Positions 42,021-50,927 of a stretch of DNA of 64,000 bases are shown in pieces (positions within the stretch are counted from its first letter, which is position 1; each line of letters begins with the position of its first letter). A model generated the notes under the pieces. It was not told the DNA's origin. It saw only the letters and a program-made list of their open reading frames with translations, and made no database searches. The translations under genes were made by a program, and so were the position numbers. The stretch lies in the NCBI GenBank assembly GCA_010093605.1, contig MU004184.1, positions 1,808,801 through 1,872,800 of the forward strand, read 5' to 3'. This DNA is from Lophium mytilinum (Eukaryota).

Positions 42021-45000
42021 ATGACCTCGGACGTCACGGCCCGCGCGAAAGCGGCAGATACGATTACACCTGGCAAGGACATCTGCCTGCTTGCGCTCGA
42101 TGGCGGCGGTGTGCGCGGCCTCTCCGCGCTTCACATCCTCAAGCAGCTCATGGAGCTGGTAGACCCAGAAAACCCACCAAAACCATGCGACTACTTCGAC
42201 CTTATCGGAGGCACCTCAACGGGAGGCCTCATCGCCATCATGTTGGGTCGCCTGCACATGAACGTGGACGAATGCATCACCGAGTACAAGAAGCTCTCAA
42301 CGAGAGTTTTCACGAAGATACACCACCGAATAAATTGGAAGGGAGATGTGCAGGGACGGTTTGATCATGAAGCTCTCGTGCTCGGTGTGCAAGAGCTTCT
42401 TGTGTCGAGAGGGTTGGACAAAGATGTACTGCTTAAAGATGCAGCGGGAGCCTCTGGCTGCAAGACGTAAGTTGCCTGTTTGCACTATTGCTCAACCTGG
42501 TTTAGTCGTCGCTGATACTGAATACTCCAAACACAGCTTCGTCTGTGCTACAAGTGAACTGACAGGCGACACCGTCATCCTGTCGAGTTACTTTTCAAGA
42601 AGGAGAGGTACCTCGCTATTGAACGTAGCCAAGGTGTGGGAAGCCTCGAGAGCTACTTCTGCAGCTAGCTCCTTCTTCGATTCCATTCAGATTGATAGCG
42701 AGGGTTTTGTGGATGGCGCTAGTGGTGCCAACAATCCTATCGACGAGATTTGGTCGGAGGCTCGAGACATCTGGCGTGAAAGCAGTGACTGGAGACTAGA
42801 AGATAATCTCAGATGTCTCGTATCCATTGGGACTGGAGTACCTACGCTGAAGCCTTTTGGGAAAGACGCAATCAAGATTGGGAAGTCCTTGGTCTCCATC
42901 GCTCTGGATACGGAACGCAGACATAACACGTTCCAGAAGCATCATTCTAGCTTATTCCGAGAGAATCGCGGTTTTCGCTTTAATGTCATCCGCGGCTTGG
43001 AAGACATTGGGCTGGAAGAAGCGGACAAGCAAGGAGATATCCTTGCCGCGACACGGAGATATACGCAGTCTGAGGACATCTATGATCGGATGGAGGCATG
43101 TGCGCAGGCTCTGCATGACAGAAAATGTGCGTCTACCGCTTGATATTTCGAGAAGTTCTACCTTCGACCGTGGACGATAACGAATCATGTTTTTCGTTCC
43201 TGCAAGCTAATTAGTCTTTCATAATGTTTAGGGTTTTGGCAGACCGTTCAAGAAGTTTACTCGAAGGACAAGCAATATGATTTGTCGTACTCTTTTTCCG
43301 ATGACTCGCCTCTTCGTGAGCAATACTTCATGCCATATTGCAATACCTCTAGTTTCCGAGCATGGTGCGAGAACAAGGCAACAGGATTACGATGCGAACC
43401 GCCACCAAATGCACCGTGGCCTACCCGCTCTCTTGCTGCATTCATCCTGGATCAACTGCGCGCTATAAAGCCTCGATCTTTTTTGAACACAACAGAAGAC
43501 GTAAATGTCCTAGTCGCACGTTGGGATTCGTCAGCGGATGGCAGCCTCAAAGATCTGCACCAGGTCTGGCTCTCTTTGCTCGGCCAGACTTTGAAGCTGA
43601 TTCTAGATCGATATTTGAACGGCAATACACTAGAACACGAGCTTGAACACACTGCCCGAAATTTGCTCCCAATTGCCGCCTGTCAGCAGTTCTATGTAGC
43701 CAGAAAATATGGTCAGCAACGTGTTCAATCCGGCCAGCTTCTAGCGACCTTGAAAAGCATTCTACTGGACAATGACGAACCAGTCGTCATGGTGCTATTA
43801 GGGAGTGTAAAAACAGAGCATTGGATGAACGTAATAGGGTCACTTGCCGCAAACTCTACGACAAGACATATCAAAATCCTCCTCTGTGGCGAAGTGAGCG
43901 ATTTGGGATCACCGAATTTCCGGCACTTCGAATCGATCGACGCGAAAACTGAGTATAAAGGTATTTTGGCCGGATGATAGACTATTTGCTTACTGACAAA
44001 TTCGCAGAGTGTATACAGTCGCTCTGCTTAGATGGTTATCGCGATCGTCGGGATGAAGTAGCGATCCGAGAACCAGAAACCAATCAGTGGATCTGGAATC
44101 ATCCTTCATTCCAGGCATGGGCTTCGTCCAAGACTGGCGTACTCTGTATTCTAGGAAAACCCGGCAGCGGCAAATCCGTCTTGGCTAAGACAATTCAAGA
44201 GAATGAGGTTGCTAAATCCACGGTTTCGAGCTATTGGTTCTACAGTAAACGGAAAGGTGAAAAATACACCAGCCACGCTTCTCTCATCCAGACAGTTCTC
44301 TGCCAGATATTGGAGTCAAATTCAAAATATCTTCCCTACTATTACGACTCGTATCGTAGGAGGTACCCAGAACGAAGCATTTTGACTATAGAAGACATGA
44401 TATGTGTTCTGAAAAAGATCGCTGAAGCTGGAGAAAGCATATTCTGCCTGATCGACGCCCTTGATGAGGCAGATGACGATACGATTTTGCATACGATCGG
44501 CGACCTTGTTTTTCACACTCCGAACTCTCGGATGAAATTCATCATCTTGAGCCGTCCTTTGCCTTGTCTCGAGCAAAAGCATTGGCTAGATTACAGTGTT
44601 GTCCTCCAAAGGGAGAATGAACCAGATGTCCAGAGAATCATCGACGCGGGACTGAAGCGCCTCCAAGAAGCCATGCATTCTCTTGATAGCGACGAGGATA
44701 CGGACGGGGAGGACGATGACTCGCCATCTATTCGGCGTGGGCCTTTGAGGACTAAATCAAGTCCTATGCACAAGACGTCTCAACGGCGCATAAAAGCTCG
44801 ACATCCAGAACAGACCGACATGACGACAATTCGAGAAGCCTTACTCCTCCGCTCCGACGGTGTGATTCTTTGGGTCGCCCTATGTATTGAAGAACTCCTT
44901 AAGCTAGTCAGAAGCCCATTATTCAGAACCCACCAGTTGAAAGTCAAGATCAACAGCCTGCCGGCCGACATGACCGATTTCTATTCTCAGATTGTGCACG

Positions 45001-48000
45001 ACTTACAGAACGCACTGAGCGAGGATGACCTGGCGGTAAGTCGACAAGCCTTGATGTGGGTCGCTGGGGCAAGTGAGCTAGGAACATTTCATTTGCAGGA
45101 GCTCTGGGACGCTCTTGCAGTCTCGGCGCCGCCCACAGGACCCATACCGGAGGGAGATGATCCTATCGTCTTCAACAGAATCCAAGTAAGAACTTGGAAT
45201 CAATTTCGCCGTACACTCCAGAAATTGTGCGGGCCCTTTATCGAAGTCTTGCCAAGCGAGTCAGATGGACATTCTCAGAGTGCACCGAGAAAAGAGCATG
45301 CCGGTCCAGAGTCCATCGTCCAATTGATGCATCAAACGAGTAAGGACTTCTTGGGAAACCGCGATGACGCAGGTCCATTGCATTTCACCAGGGAGGCCGC
45401 AAGAGCGTTTGTTATTGATGGTATAATCCGCTATTTGATCACATCCCACACCTACGTACCAGAAATCCAGTCCTCGCCCTCGCCCGACTGGATATTCCAA
45501 TGGGTAAAGTCCGTTGATAATCTTACCGCGTACTTGGACGATAGGAAAATGCTCCATTTTGCTCTTGCGGTCTCTAAAAGCGAGCAACTGGTGGTGGACG
45601 TAACTACGGCGATCGCGCGAGCATGTCTACTTCCAAAAATGCAGATCCACGATGCCAACGTCCAACTGCATGATAAAGCTTTCGATGAAATCCCCCAGAA
45701 GCTCATGGGTTTTATCGGGGCAGAGTCCGCGCTTGTTGGTAGATTGTTTTATAACGCAGTCACTTATGGTCTTTCAAATGCCGTCGTCAATCTACTAGAC
45801 ATGTCCATGCTAATCGAAACTTGGTGGCCTCAATTCGAAGACAGTGTGCTCAACGCTGCATATTTGGCTGCCTTGGATCACAACATGAACGAACTAGGGG
45901 ATCTTTTATGGACTGATGCTAGAAAGGAAAAGTATAACGTTTTTTCACTCCCTCCGAAGATACGAGCACAAGCCTCTTCTCTAGGTGAAATCTCTGGGGA
46001 CGAAGATGACGTCGAAGTAGCGATATCACGGATCATCAGCCGCTGGCAATTATTGGAACGGCGTGGCACTATTGGCACTCTTGGGGTTTGCGCGCTTGAT
46101 TCCAAGGCTCGAAGCAAACCAATCAGTAGACTCCTAGAGCAAATCAGCCAAAATGCTGAGTTCGACATCATAATGTTCGGGGATAAAAACATTCTGGACG
46201 AGCCAGTGGAGAATTGGCCGCCCTGCGACTTCCTCATCTCGTTCTTCTCGGGAGGCTTTCCCCTTCAAAAGGCCATTGACTACGTAACGCTGCGAAAGCC
46301 ACACTGTGTGAACGATCTACACATGCAGATGGCTCTCCGGGATAGACGAGTGACCCTTGCATTTCTCGATGAAATAGGTGTACCTACCATTGAGCGAGTT
46401 GAAGTGAACCGAGATGGGGATTTTGCGATGCCTTACGCAGTCCTTATCCGGCGAGTGAACTCGGGTTCCGGACTTGTTACACTCGAAGAAGACGGTGATG
46501 TTCTCGTCGTTGGCGTAAAACGACTAAGAAAGCCCTTTGTGGAAAAACCAGTAGACTCTGATGACCACAATATCTACATATACTTTTCGAATGATCAGGG
46601 CGGAGGAGGAAGAAGGCTTTTCCGAAAGACTAACAACAAGAGTTCAGAGGTAGATGAAACTCTCCATGTCCCCCGAGCCATTACGGAACCTGAAAGCAGC
46701 TACATATATGAGAAATTCTTAGAAGCCGAAAATGCGGAGGACGTCAAAGCATATACCGCCGGTGAATTTTATTGTCGTGCAGAGACAAGGAAGGCTCCAA
46801 TAGTCGATGGCGTTGTCAAGCGTAATACTCACGGAAAGGAGATTCGCTACATCACAAGTTTATCCCGCGATGAAACTAGGATGGCGTCCAAAATTGTACA
46901 AGGCTTCGGCCAGACAGTCTGTGGTTTTGGCATTATCCGTTCGAATGGTCAGAGCTACGTCCACAGCGTTAGTGGTTGGAGCTTGGTGAAGGACAATGCA
47001 GAGTATTCGAAAAATTGCGCCGCCGTCTTACGACAGTTGTTCATCGATGAAACCAGGAATCGTGAATTACCCCGAGGTCTGGCCAAAACTTTTATATCCA
47101 GGAACGTACAATCTAGGTCCGTTCAGGCTTCATTTAATAAAAAATTGGAGTGGGACCTGCCAGAGTTGAGTACCGCCCCCAAAGGCCATGAATACAACGA
47201 CCTATATCCTATTCAGCTCCGCCGTCACGAATCAAGGACGCTACCCGGAATTTCGAAACACTTCGCTCCGTCATCATTGCGCAGTCCAGTAACAGGGTCT
47301 GGAGGATCAAAACCTTCAAGTCTACCCTCGTCCCGCGACATTAAGTATGGACATAATTCAGGGTTGTCCTCCAGTGGTACCTCTGATAAGAAATCACCGA
47401 TGGCGTGGAAGTTAAAGGGGATCGTTGCAGTTCACAGCCATGGAGACAGCACCCCTAAACAAGATCTCGAGTTCACTTTTCACACAGACCCATTCATTGA
47501 CTTACTCGAAGGCCATGGAAATGAAGTGACGTTGACAAAACAGTCTGCCATCACGCGCCTACAATCAGTCGCAGACTCAGCGCTCCATGTTGCTGCTGAA
47601 AATGCCGATGATTTGAGAAAGCTCAATACCGCGCTGCAGAAGACAGTCAAAGAAGTCAAACTGTCAACCAAACCAACCGATTTTGGATCACCTCCTGTTC
47701 CTGAACAAGTTAATTTGGTTATACATCTTGGAAATGACCCCACTCATGCACTCATTTATCAAACACGAGAGCTAGCAGAAAACTTCCGGCGCGAGTTCCT
47801 TCTTATGAACGCGGAGCTTTTGGGTGACTTGCATGTTTTCTGCTCTTCAGAGGCAGCAGCATCGTATACCGCACATATATTTACCGCGAGGTTGTTAGGC
47901 TTCAATGATATTCCTTCGGACTTCATCCAGGAACGAAATGACCTCCTCGGCGATTCTTTAGATGCCACAGGTCAGCTAGAAACGGCTCAAAAGCAACTCA

Positions 48001-49089
48001 ATCAGCTCTTGAGAGAAGAGATGAAACCCTCCGCTCAATCTGTGTGGCCTTTGGATATGCCAGAACCCTCAGTTGTTGGCAAGCGTCTCCACCAATCGAT
48101 TATAGCCAACAGAACGACAGTGCTGCTTAACTTTTCGAAGTTGAATTCGGCAAATATCAACCTTGTTCAATCCCGATGGTGCTCAGGACAAGATCCGTAC
48201 CTCTTTATGGATCGCTGGGAGAAGCTCCTTGCCAGAATTTGCGGCGCCCCCAGAATTGACCCAGCTCAAATCGTTGAACTTTATAACAGTCTCAAGTTTG
48301 ATGCTGTTCACAACCGAGAATTTCTCGAGTGGTGCTTTACACCGACTGATCCAACAAGCAGCGACAGCCGCGAAGACACCATGGCCAACTACTCCACCCT
48401 CCACTCACGAATTCCAGCTCCCGCGCAACACCAAGACAACTCACTGAAACGACTTCATGAGCTGTGGCATCTTTGTAAAACTATGTTCGATTACATATAC
48501 CCACTGAAATACGGCACTACGAGTGGCGACAAGCTAGAGATTGGTCTTCTGTACTCCCTACCACTGCTACAAGAAGTTGTCCAAGATCTGGAGGAGATGC
48601 AGGCATCTGACGACTCAAAATCCTTCTTTTATTTCACAAACAATTCCCACATGTACACTCTTCTCAATTGCATTCTTGAGGGTACTTTGAAGTCAAAGAT
48701 GGCTACAAATCAAATCCCCACGCTTGATTGTCTATCCAGCATGTGTTTTGAACTCTACGAGAGGCACTCTTCCAATTCAAGAGAATTTGAATACAGCCTG
48801 AAGATCACCCTAAGTCCAGGTTGCCACGCCTATGACCCTCTAAATACGTAAGCATAGCATCCAGCTCAACTTGATACGATACTGATTCCTCGTAGTGTGG
48901 TTGATTCCCATCATGCAATCTTCAGTGCACCCCGAAGGGACTTGACAGGGCACATCGACTGGAAAGAAGCAATAGAAACGCTTCGTGTTTCAATCCAAAG
49001 GTACGTCTAATCAAGCACGGTCTCGGTACTAAAAGGTCTCAAGCTAATATCTATTTAGAATGAAGCTGCCTAAGTCGTTCATGACCTAG
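42021..49089 (+). CDS. NLR-like protein: patatin phospholipase - degenerate NACHT - NACHT - helical region - Vip1/Asp1 (PPIP5K) pseudokinase/pseudophosphatase; ~2246 aa
   Basis: Exons 42021-42466, 42537-43126, 43232-43960, 44008-48847, 48896-49000, 49059-49089. All introns are GT-AG with branch sites, and the coding total of 6741 nt is in frame. Patatin DGGGVR, GTSTG, DGA. NACHT GKPGSGKS (44154-44177) and IDALDE. PPIP5K GVCALDSKARSKP...WPPCDFLISFFSGGFPL...RNTHGKEIRY...LSPGCH...KLPKSF. Confidence 0.9.
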
Positions 49090-49473
49090 TCGGAGCCAGC
49101 ATTTGGCGCCTCGCCTCATCGTTTGCCTCACATTTCTTCTGCTTGACTCAGCGAACAAGTCCTGAATTCTAAGCCAGACTTAGAGTGGTGTACACGCCTC
49201 ATCTCACCCTCGCGGAACGCTCACGTTGACTTTCCCCTTTCAAATCCTTATAGGACTCATCCCAAACTACTCGCCGGTGCTATCAACCTTCGTCTCTTCG
49301 CATTCAATGCTTGCTCAATTCCCAGGCAAACCGAGCCTAGACTCAGGCTGGCAGATTGCTGGAATGGGAAAGCTGGAAAGTAAAAAGAGTGCTACACACG
49401 GACTGCATGAGCTACCATCATTGATACTGGTCGTGAACCGTCGAACGATATTCAATAATCAGAAAGTAGCTAT

Positions 49474-50342
49474 TTACAATTTCTGAGAGCTGAACATGCG
49501 AAGGACAGCGTTCATAACGAGGACTATCGCGCTCTCGAACAGGTAGATTCTAATATGATTAACGTGAAAGAAGAGTAACGGTAGTATGAGAACTGATCCG
49601 ATAAGGTGAATCTTATAAAACCACCAGTAATCTCTGCGACGGAAGAGTCCAGTGGAAGTAACTCCAAGAGTGAAAAGAATAGCAGCGCTGATTAAAGCAA
49701 CTACGATGTTCGAATGCCGAATACTTGTCCAAAACATGTCTATTTGCACAAAGAAGATGCTGTAGAGTGATATGTGGATAGCGAAGAAGGCAATGATAAT
49801 CTTTCCAGTGACCTTATGTACCGACATATTCAGTGCGTAGGATCTCTTTGATAGGAGCTGAAGAGGTGAATATGGATGCGGCATAGCGAGGAGGTAGTGC
49901 ATCGGTAATTGGGAGGCTGCGATGAGACCAAATCGCTTAGTGAGGTGCAAGTAATCTATGCTTGTCAGTGTTTAGTCTCTAATCTAGGATAGGAGCTTAT
50001 GGTACCAGGCGCGGTCTCGGCGATGCACAAGAATCCCAGCCATGAAGTCCAGGCTAGTCCGAATATCCATTGTCCATACGTGCCATATCCCCTGCCCACA
50101 TTTACGCCCAATTTGAAGTATAGGCTTCTTGCAATACGAGCCAGAACGGCTACGCTGCCTTTCTGAGATTTTCCCGCGAGCTTGCTGACTGGGATCGAAG
50201 CAGCGAAATTGCAGAACAGGATGATTAGGTGAACTATAAGTTGCGAGATCTGTGCTATATTCGCGTACTGATCTAATCGAATACGTCGCTGCACGATGAG
50301 CTCAGGCGTTCTTGCAAGAAATTCGTACACAAGATAGCTCAT
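49474..50342 (-). CDS. Ferric-reductase-like transmembrane (heme b) domain only; no FAD/NADPH domains
   Basis: Two exons (intron ~50005-49958). DYLHLTKRFGLIAASQLPMHYLLA; His pairs VHKVTG...IHISLY and KIHLIG...FFHVNH; stop directly after the last TM helix. Confidence 0.75.
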
Positions 50343-50927
50343 GGTGATAGGCTTTGTTGTTTATTTCGTGAACAAGCGTGAAATGTGGGAGGTAGGAGAG
50401 CAATACTACAGGCAACATGTCTTGTATTTATACTAGTATCGAGCTCGTATACTGTAGACTCATTAATAATGCTTTGGTTTATACTGCCTTATTTCCGAGA
50501 ACTGTAATCACAATCTCGCGGATACCTCTATTAAGCTGCGTTGGGTTGAAGGTTAGACGAGGAATTACGGCACCAGTCCATATCTGGTATGGGATTGACC
50601 TTACGAGTTCTTGAGCCCCACAAGCCGCGCGGGAAGGTCCACCAAGCTTTAGGCCCGCGCGCAATGTCGCACTCTATCGTGCATGTAACCCGCAATGGGA
50701 AGTTTCCTCTTTCCCGCGCGGAAGACGTTTGTAATCAGTATCCTCTTGTCTAAAGAAGAGGAGGTCGGGCAGCTAGGTTATTCGCTCTGATAGGAGGGAT
50801 TTTAGACGGACTTCTTTTAATCTTCACGCTGGTTCATCTTGAGCAGAATAAGTCTTCATATTCTGCATCGATTGCTGGCCGCATACTAACTAGTGCTGCA
50901 TGGCGCACTACCACGGTGGTAGTCCAT

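Follow-up and report, generated by a model that had tools for sequence, protein, structure and literature searches.

A patatin-NACHT protein of Lophium mytilinum with a putative, doubly inactive Vip1-like module at its C-terminal end

Fungal NOD-like receptors (NLRs) are numerous, and we know of almost none with an established ligand. Integrated decoys are central to plant immunity. In fungi they have been proposed only recently (PMC12258605, in its accessible part); the same source counts patatin as a canonical N-terminal domain in such receptors and describes putative C-terminal PKinase (CHK-2-like) integrated domains in NLRs of the Sordariales, for which a decoy logic is proposed. Here we describe a gene on the forward strand of a 64,000-nucleotide stretch (the window) of contig MU004184.1 of Lophium mytilinum. 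Judged by homology, its product is an NLR-like patatin-NACHT protein with a duplicated Vip1/PPIP5K enzyme attached at the C-terminus, and both enzymatic centers of this module are degenerate.

The patatin NLR PLP-1 of Neurospora has an NB-ARC nucleotide-binding domain and a TPR sensor domain. Its C-terminal part detects SEC-9, a SNARE protein, and its patatin domain is needed for cell death (PMC10197012, accessible part). The window protein resembles PLP-1 in its N-terminal patatin effector and central STAND (signal transduction ATPase with numerous domains) nucleoside triphosphatase (NTPase), and the C-terminal part of PLP-1 recognizes a conserved host protein. There are differences, however. 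The NTPase of the window protein is of the NACHT/NPHP3_N type rather than NB-ARC, no repeats were found where PLP-1 has TPR, and its own chain includes a host-enzyme copy, whereas PLP-1 recognizes a separate protein.

As in plant NLRs with integrated domains (NLR-IDs) and in the Sordariales NLRs with PKinase domains, the duplicate of a cellular protein is fused at the C-terminal end. In contrast to these proteins, what is integrated is an entire bifunctional enzyme of ~975 residues, inactivated at both centers, and it replaces the canonical repeats rather than following them. The non-canonical domain that marks an NLR-ID, duplicating a cellular protein, is present (its dothideomycete Vip1 clade has a support of 1.0). 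An NTPase with Walker A and B motifs and a canonical N-terminal effector, as expected of a fungal NLR, were also found; canonical C-terminal repeats were not (no ANK, WD40, TPR or HEAT repeat by Pfam at E values up to 0.01). Neither His_Phos_2 nor PPIP5K2_N occurs among the 185 non-canonical domains of 4613 Sordariales NLRs in the S10 table and the searched part of the supplements of PMC12258605, and the literature retrieved on NACHT proteins or NLRs with PPIP5K or inositol pyrophosphates, including that on fungi, yielded no account of such an architecture. NLRs into which a non-canonical domain is integrated are known; new is a whole PPIP5K as a double pseudoenzyme in the sensor position.

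The enzymatic centers of the Vip1-like module

The segment 47400-49089 of the window is the C-terminal end of one gene (42021-49089, + strand) and not a stand-alone gene. The full open reading frame encodes 2246 residues and is interrupted by five introns; when the exons are joined, the coding sequence of 6741 nucleotides stays in frame and its sole stop is the terminal one. From the N-terminus, the order of domains is patatin, NACHT, a helical region, a Vip1-like kinase and a Vip1-like phosphatase. The part from NACHT through the phosphatase lies in a single open frame (to be referred to as P0001; window 43959-48848). The features of the module, including four degenerate motifs, are as follows (canonical proteins are defined below).

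46056-47048, + strand: Vip1/PPIP5K-like ATP-grasp kinase half (9gr8, E 1e-111; 8e1h, E 2e-104; PPIP5K2_N, E 3e-34)
47049-47399, + strand: Ser/Pro-rich linker between the kinase-like and phosphatase-like halves, from the translation; unaligned to solved structures
47400-49089, + strand: Vip1/PPIP5K-like histidine-acid-phosphatase half (His_Phos_2, E 9.7e-26; 9grh/9grn, E 1e-94)
47436-47456, + strand: degenerate catalytic loop, SHGDSTP for RHADRTP (R, H and R each 118/118 in canonical proteins)
47724-47747, + strand: HLGNDPTH for KWGGEPTH (KWGGEPTH in 118/118 canonical proteins)
47847-47861, + strand: SEAAA for SERRV (R687 in 114/118 and R688 in 118/118 canonical proteins; both Ala here)
48633-48650, + strand: FTNNSH for FTKESH (K990 to Asn, E991 to Asn, H993 retained; K990 and E991 each 118/118)

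The phosphatase half matches the Pfam family His_Phos_2 (PF00328) above its cut-off over residues 1151-1616 of P0001. With phmmer, residues 7-487 of the query align with residues 3-457 of the Saccharomyces cerevisiae Vip1 (ScVip1) phosphatase domain (9grh, as listed above; 9grn, E 4e-93). The homology covers the whole domain, including the GAF and α-helical insertions. The canonical set consists of 118 full-length fungal Vip1 matches (P0004-P0121), which were aligned with the window module by MAFFT.

The preliminary description of this DNA had read the RHxDRTP motif as SHGDSTP, with both arginines lost and the histidine kept, and this is exact to the base in the ScVip1 alignment: codon 1160 of P0001 begins at 47436, and phmmer pairs SHGDSTPKQ with RHADRTPKQ. 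The three further substitutions that it listed are all present in the alignments to 9grh and 9grn, with HLGNDPTHA paired with KWGGEPTHS and SSEAAAS paired with SSERRVL. The alignment to the Vip1 phosphatase domain that it had proposed as a check, made with both structures and with the 118 canonical proteins, bears out the losses.

In ScVip1 numbering, the arginines R547 and R551 of the catalytic loop are both replaced by Ser, and the nucleophile H548 (His1161 of P0001) and D550 are retained. Near the active site, K556 is Asp and K644 is His, with K554 retained. The outer substrate site has four replacements (K558 to Glu, K605 to Asp, K732 to Gln, K817 to Arg). At the GAF site Q625 is Ser, and E576, K623 and K627 are retained. 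In the hinge, G647 is Asn, with P553 and G646 retained. Both members of the downstream Arg pair, R687 and R688, are Ala. In the α-helical insertion, S821 is Ala and D819 is retained. Within HLGNDPTH the changes are thus K644 to His and hinge G647 to Asn, and the zinc ligand H651 is kept. Residues R547, H548, R551, K556, K558, K644, G647, R688, K732, K990 and E991 are each found in 118/118 proteins of the canonical set, and K605 in 117/118.

The structural zinc ligands of the ScVip1 phosphatase domain, as named in the accessible part of Raia et al. 2025 (PMC11836120), are H651, C793, H836 and H1064. All four are retained (4/4), with H1064 placed by counting along the alignment on the assumption of no insertion or deletion. 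Near-invariant hydrophobic positions of the phosphatase half are unchanged in 71 of 101 cases (70%), and of the 30 that differ, 14 do so conservatively. In comparison, 20 of the 35 near-invariant basic positions are altered, only 2 of them conservatively. The half contains 45 Lys and Arg residues, against a median of 65 and a minimum of 57 in canonical proteins. The phosphatase half thus appears to be a retained core and metal site from which the substrate surface, which binds inositol pyrophosphates (PP-InsPs), is erased. The preserved fold claimed in the preliminary description agrees with the four zinc ligands and the 70% figure.

Over the whole alignment, 117 of 407 near-invariant columns deviate in the window module, while the median for canonical proteins is 1 and the largest value 9; as aligned, the departure from canonical Vip1 motifs is far beyond chance. 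Among eukaryote-wide representatives of 50%-identity clusters that cover the loop, RHxxR is present in 66/69 and both arginines are lacking in 0/69. The remaining three have degenerate loops of other kinds: RHGDL in P0355 (615 residues, His_Phos_2 only), RNGDH in P0363 (1237 residues, PPIP5K2_N and His_Phos_2) and RNADH in P0406 (453 residues).

The phosphatase half shares with the ScVip1 phosphatase domain the extent of the homology, the zinc ligands, the nucleophile His and the KLPKSF tail, and it is preceded, as in every PPIP5K, by a homologous ATP-grasp kinase domain. It differs from ScVip1 in having SHxxS for RHxxR and in the replacement of R687/R688, K556, K558, K605, K644, K732, K990, E991, Q625 and G647, and from canonical Vip1 in its fusion behind a patatin-NACHT protein.

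The accessible mutagenesis results for ScVip1 (PMC11836120) bear on most of these positions. Each of R547A, H548A and R551A strongly cuts the hydrolysis of 1,5-InsP8 (1,5-bisdiphosphoinositol tetrakisphosphate), in agreement with the earlier statement that the RHxxR arginines are needed for catalysis. Joint mutation of K558, K605, K732 and K817 gives an inactive enzyme, as does the hinge triple mutant P553V/G646V/G647A, and the K554/K557/K644 set lowers activity (Lys557 of that paper is taken to be Lys556 of our alignment). Phosphatase activity toward inositol 1-pyrophosphates is predicted to be absent, because both RHxxR arginines are lost and R547A or R551A cripples ScVip1.

In the kinase half, comparison was made with the solved structures of S. 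cerevisiae Vip1 (9gr8) and Schizosaccharomyces pombe Asp1 (8e1h). Twelve residues were examined, namely 11 from the Asp1 alanine scan and D333. The sole changes are in three metal ligands: D321, D333 and N335 of Asp1 correspond to G991 (46929-46931), S1003 (46965-46967) and S1005 (46971-46973), in columns that are D, D and N, respectively, in 118/118 canonical proteins. The other nine, K43, R123, H204, R223, K224, K260, R285, R293 and K341, are all retained (9/9). Moreover, none of the 25 near-invariant basic residues of the kinase half is altered, compared to the 20/35 of the phosphatase half (Fisher p 8e-7). In Asp1, D321A and D333A abolish kinase activity (PMC9239264, accessible part), and by this analogy we infer that the kinase half is catalytically dead. 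The earlier claim that both enzymatic activities are lost agrees, at the level of residues, with the absence of the RHxxR arginines and of the D321, D333 and N335 equivalents. Only the two enzymatic centers of the appended module appear to be dead, as the motifs of the patatin and NACHT domains are intact.

Origin and relatives of the fusion

One other protein, P0003, contains NPHP3_N and PPIP5K2_N in one frame. It is 1017 residues long, is cut by the end of its contig, and is 57% identical to the window protein (67% in NACHT, 60% in the helical region, 39% in the linker and 62% in the kinase-like half). Between the two fusions, the kinase half equals NACHT and the helical region in its level of conservation. 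A FastTree phylogeny built on the Vip1 alignment pairs P0003 with the window module as sisters (support 0.947) and nests both in a clade of 38 dothideomycete sequences (support 1.0), which by sequence shows an origin of the module within dothideomycete Vip1. Since the lineage that shares the fusion is only 57% identical, the fusion appears to be old; by this comparison it predates the species and is common to a second lineage. In a third organism, a close relative (sequencing run X4), spliced contigs are ~96% identical to the window over the patatin and linker exons. The 40 of 104 differences listed, all in the N-terminal exons, comprise 29 synonymous and 11 non-synonymous ones, a mainly synonymous divergence that speaks against decay.

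P0003 has a Gly at the position of the essential R223 of Asp1 (RRLFGK, aligned to residue 889 of P0001). This suggests that its kinase half may be inactive as well, by a different substitution. The contig of P0003 stops before the metal-ligand positions and the phosphatase half.

The nearest relatives of the NLR part, the patatin-NACHT proteins P0242-P0249, are 26-35% identical and have no Vip1 module. P0243 (Periconia digitata; patatin and NPHP3_N, 1238 residues) shares the order patatin, linker, NPHP3_N and helical region, shows 35% identity to the window protein over residues 16-1195 of the latter, and stops at the point where the module starts.

The kinase half is 60% identical to canonical Vip1, compared to 73% among canonical proteins. 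A word-indexed search of proteins of 268-854 residues for a second pseudo-phosphatase returned canonical-like fragments only. A phmmer search of 1.84 billion representatives gave a best non-self match of 397 bits and 47% identity; any relatives above 50% identity would be hidden in the cluster to which the window protein itself belongs. The 120 matches listed include no canonical Vip1 from L. mytilinum.

Proposed role of the module and alternatives

From its sequence and position, the module is best read as a double pseudoenzyme that takes the place of an NLR's sensor, in the manner of an integrated decoy. A bait or sensor is proposed because an effector (patatin), a switch (NACHT) and a dead but folded Vip1 copy in the sensor position are combined in one protein, as foreshadowed by PLP-1 and the NLR-IDs. 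We consider it somewhat probable that the module is an integrated bait or an autoinhibitory sensor, with a selected, non-catalytic role in recognition or regulation. The chances are about even for the fuller scheme, in which the doubly inactivated Vip1 would serve as the NLR sensor, either as bait for a microbial or viral factor or, through its kinase half, as a direct receptor for InsP6 (inositol hexakisphosphate), 5-InsP7 (5-diphosphoinositol pentakisphosphate) or ATP that would couple the levels of nutrient messengers to cell death by patatin. The patatin-NACHT context, on which the preliminary description was silent, makes the bait or sensor reading concrete.

By analogy with PLP-1 and the plant NLR-IDs, the module would be a folded, non-catalytic domain for recognition or autoinhibition, built in imitation of the Vip1 of the cell itself. 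Binding or modification of the module by a foreign, Vip1-targeting factor, or some other disturbance of its conformation, would come first. The NACHT NTPase would then be released and would oligomerize, and the intact patatin phospholipase would cause membrane damage and cell death.

If the sensor reading is true, Vip1/PP-InsP signaling would be a guarded hub of fungal innate immunity; if the module is a bait, this would point to Vip1 or inositol pyrophosphates as a target of antagonists of fungi; and if it senses a ligand, PP-InsP signaling would be linked to NLR activation. The case is testable: the integrated enzyme has been studied in depth, both structures and assays exist for it, and loss of activity, residual ligand binding and partners are open to direct measurement. 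As a natural double pseudoenzyme of PPIP5K, it also shows which residues are dispensable while the zinc site and core stay.

Several observations weigh against a bait or sensor. We know of no effector that targets Vip1, and none was found in the literature on inositol pyrophosphates or PPIP5K together with NACHT proteins or NLRs. Full retention of basic residues in the kinase half is no rule of the family, given the Gly of P0003 at the R223 equivalent. The terminal branch of the window module is long (1.41 substitutions per site, against a median patristic distance of 1.01 among canonical proteins), and the phosphatase half is its fastest-evolving part, with 47% identity to canonical proteins, which are ~73% identical to one another; such divergence is compatible with an arms race and with relaxed constraint alike. 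The word-indexed and phmmer searches found no ortholog of the phosphatase half, and constraint on this half is suggested by the open frame and the folding residues rather than by the ratio of non-synonymous to synonymous rates. Finally, the deposited gene model (P0002, 1025 residues) splits the locus, a contig that crosses the region does not prove a single transcript, and the 6941-nucleotide contig described below continues into the next, convergent gene.

The main alternative, though an unlikely one, is that the module is a metabolite sensor, which binds inositol (pyro)phosphates or a nucleotide mainly by its kinase-like half, so that the NLR reads PP-InsP or energy status and the dead phosphatase is a structural partner only. 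All 25 near-invariant Lys and Arg residues of the kinase half are retained, as are all nine scanned residues that contact the phosphates of ATP or the inositol phosphates, and a loss limited to catalytic metal ligands is the pattern expected of a binder without turnover. However, a decoy that mimics the Vip1 surface would show the same retention, and the R223 equivalent is lost in P0003. Moreover, ATP binding in ATP-grasp enzymes generally needs the metals whose ligands are gone, and of the 35 invariant basic residues of the phosphatase half 20 are gone, as are most of the PP-InsP-contacting lysines that have been tested.

It is very unlikely that the module is a decaying appendage, a recent VIP1 duplicate that was joined in frame to the end of an NLR-like gene and now drifts, with the open frame a leftover. 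The very long branch, the 117/407 altered near-invariant positions, the two dead active sites and the knowledge of the fusion from only two or three lineages would fit such a history. The frame argues otherwise. The preliminary description had noted no stop over ~1000 codons, and P0001 is in fact stop-free for 1630. An unconstrained substitution model was applied to the 487 phosphatase codons, with 200 runs per level and with insertions and deletions ignored, which makes it conservative. The mean number of stops per simulated sequence rose from 5.4 at an amino-acid divergence of 20% to 10.4 at 40% and 13.8 at 55%, and 0/200 stayed stop-free at any of the three levels; the observed divergence from canonical Vip1 is 53%.

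The two terminal introns, described earlier as spliceable in frame, are indeed removed in an RNA-like contig at GT..AG ends, and the resulting C-terminus matches the canonical one. Because no simulated frame stayed open, and because of this precise splicing, the kept zinc site, the C-terminal KLPKSF motif and the age of a fusion that a lineage of only 57% identity also has, neutral decay can be rejected for most of the module's divergence and history, although these data leave room for a very recent loss of function. In addition, the changes among the tested functional residues of the kinase half strike metal ligands only, which also speaks against drift. Of the earlier proposal that the module is selected for a non-catalytic role and is not decaying, the second part is thus upheld by the simulations and the splicing, and the bait, scaffold or sensor role stands as a suggestion.

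Equally little credence, or a trace less, is given to the locus as deposited, with a patatin-NACHT gene and a separate pseudo-Vip1 of 1025 residues that could work alone, perhaps as a scaffold or a dominant-negative partner for Vip1. Translation of P0002 begins at an internal Met and yields only PPIP5K2_N and His_Phos_2, and the contigs leave the single transcript unproven. On the other hand, there is no stop across the ~650 codons between the two parts, the intervening region is conserved as coding sequence (60% and 39% identity to P0003), and P0003, an independent gene call, spans NACHT and PPIP5K2_N. P0002 also misses the last intron, which is removed in the RNA-like contig, and is hence poorly supported.

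That the phosphatase is still active through its retained His, with other residues in place of the lost arginines, has next to no probability: the equivalents of the nucleophile H548, D550, K554 and H993 are retained, and E991, which is Asn here, activates ScVip1 when changed to Ala (PMC11836120, accessible part), but a single R547A or R551A already strongly lowers activity in the same source, both arginines are gone here, and R687/R688 and seven more substrate-contact or hinge residues are gone with them.

Gene architecture and transcripts

The remaining features of the gene are as follows.

42021-43126 (42021-42466 and 42537-43126), + strand: patatin-like phospholipase, exons 1-2 (PF01734, E 2.8e-13 and 1.9e-6)
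42467-42536, + strand: intron 1, spliced out in RNA-like contigs of runs X3 and X4
43127-43231, + strand: intron 2, GT..AG, joint 43126/43232 in X3 and X4
43232-43960, + strand: exon 3, patatin-NACHT linker with no Pfam family, with homology to P0243 and to the N-terminal end of P0003
43961-44007, + strand: intron 3, GT..AG, joint 43958/44006 (+2) in X3 and X4
44079-44555, + strand: NACHT/NPHP3_N NTPase (PF24883, E 2e-27, residues 41-199 of P0001)
44556-46055, + strand: helical post-NACHT region (residues 200-623) and fusion-specific linker (residues 624-699), 60% and 39% identical to P0003
48848-48895, + strand: intron of 48 nucleotides, GT..AG, joint 48847/48896 in the 6941-nucleotide X3 contig
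49001-49058, + strand: intron of 58 nucleotides, GT..AG, joint 48998/49057 (+2) in X3; unspliced in the deposited model

Two frames upstream of P0001 jointly encode a complete patatin domain by Pfam, with the PF01734 matches together spanning positions 1-190 of the 191 of the profile. The motifs GGGVRG, GTSTG and DGA, which we take to define patatin, are all present. In the NTPase, where our definition of NACHT motifs is likewise assumed, Walker A (GKPGSGKS, 44154-44177) and Walker B (LIDALDEA) are both intact; a second family, PF05729, scores 21.2 bits on the same domain, below its cut-off of 26.7. In P0001, Pfam places NPHP3_N/NACHT at residues 41-199 and PPIP5K2_N at residues 707-795. The phosphatase half is encoded by exon 4 up to 48847 and by 48896-49000 and 49059-49089, with the stop TAG at 49087-49089.

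The AlphaFold2 model of residues 200-690 of P0001 (mean predicted local distance difference test score, pLDDT, 70.4) is all helical apart from one small sheet. Foldseek finds no match for it in the Protein Data Bank at E values up to 0.001 (NLRC4 has an E value of 0.36). With VIA-align, the best Z score is 8.2, a weak match to a designed helical repeat and AAA+ lids, and Apaf-1 has a Z score of 6.3 over 191 residues; all of these fall below the advised level of trust for helical models. With such weak matches, the post-NACHT region may still contain cryptic helical repeats. An in-frame GT...AG segment near 45037-45108 was considered as an intron and rejected, as it encodes LMWV...LQELWDAL, is common to P0003 and is kept in the RNA contig.

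The contigs of run X3 lack five GT..AG-ended segments, the five introns, that are present in a DNA contig of run X1. X3 therefore behaves as RNA; this is a guess made from the five joints alone. The X3 contig of 6941 nucleotides joins 43232-43958, 44006-48847, 48896-48998 and 49057-49600+ at GT..AG joints, and thus spans the linker exon, NACHT, the helical region, both Vip1 halves and both terminal introns. The splice at 43961-44007 is confirmed by P0003, because its ...TEYKECL... spans the junction. The spliced C-terminus reads ...RMKLPKSFMT*, compared to the canonical consensus ...TVKLPKSFLS. P0002 (window 45900-49089), from L. mytilinum and 100% identical to the window, ends with QRYV in the unspliced last intron. 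The RNA-like contig and the kept KLPKSF tail support the fused protein of 2246 residues with the last intron removed.

The convergent gene directly downstream (49474-50360, - strand) is ferric-reductase-like (Pfam Ferric_reduct, E 7e-17), and the 6941-nucleotide contig reaches ~725 nucleotides past 49600 into it, by transcript overlap or by a merge in assembly. The other neighbors are ordinary as well, and include a Zn2Cys6 factor, Utp13, a kinesin and a transporter of the MFS family; no NLR cluster and no transposon signature was found within the 64-kb window.

At the 5′ end, the X3 contig with exons 1 and 2 begins ~800 nucleotides upstream of the ATG at 42021 (~41217) with no joint, which could reflect a long 5′ untranslated region or overlap with an upstream transcript. 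Its depth is 107, and that of the 6.9-kb contig is 15.8; contig depths are weak evidence. An X3 contig of 164 nucleotides keeps intron 2 (43098-43261, depth 46), alongside a spliced contig of 59 nucleotides (depth 18.7). With intron 2 retained, the frame would run into TGA at 43141-43143 and the product would consist of patatin alone.

Run X4 gives no usable cover of the Vip1-like part, with one match of 35 nucleotides (47759-47794) that is loose at both ends. In exon 3, an X4 contig skips 126 nucleotides with GT..AG ends (43710-43837), in frame and equal to 42 codons; the linker of that organism either has one more intron or has undergone a deletion.

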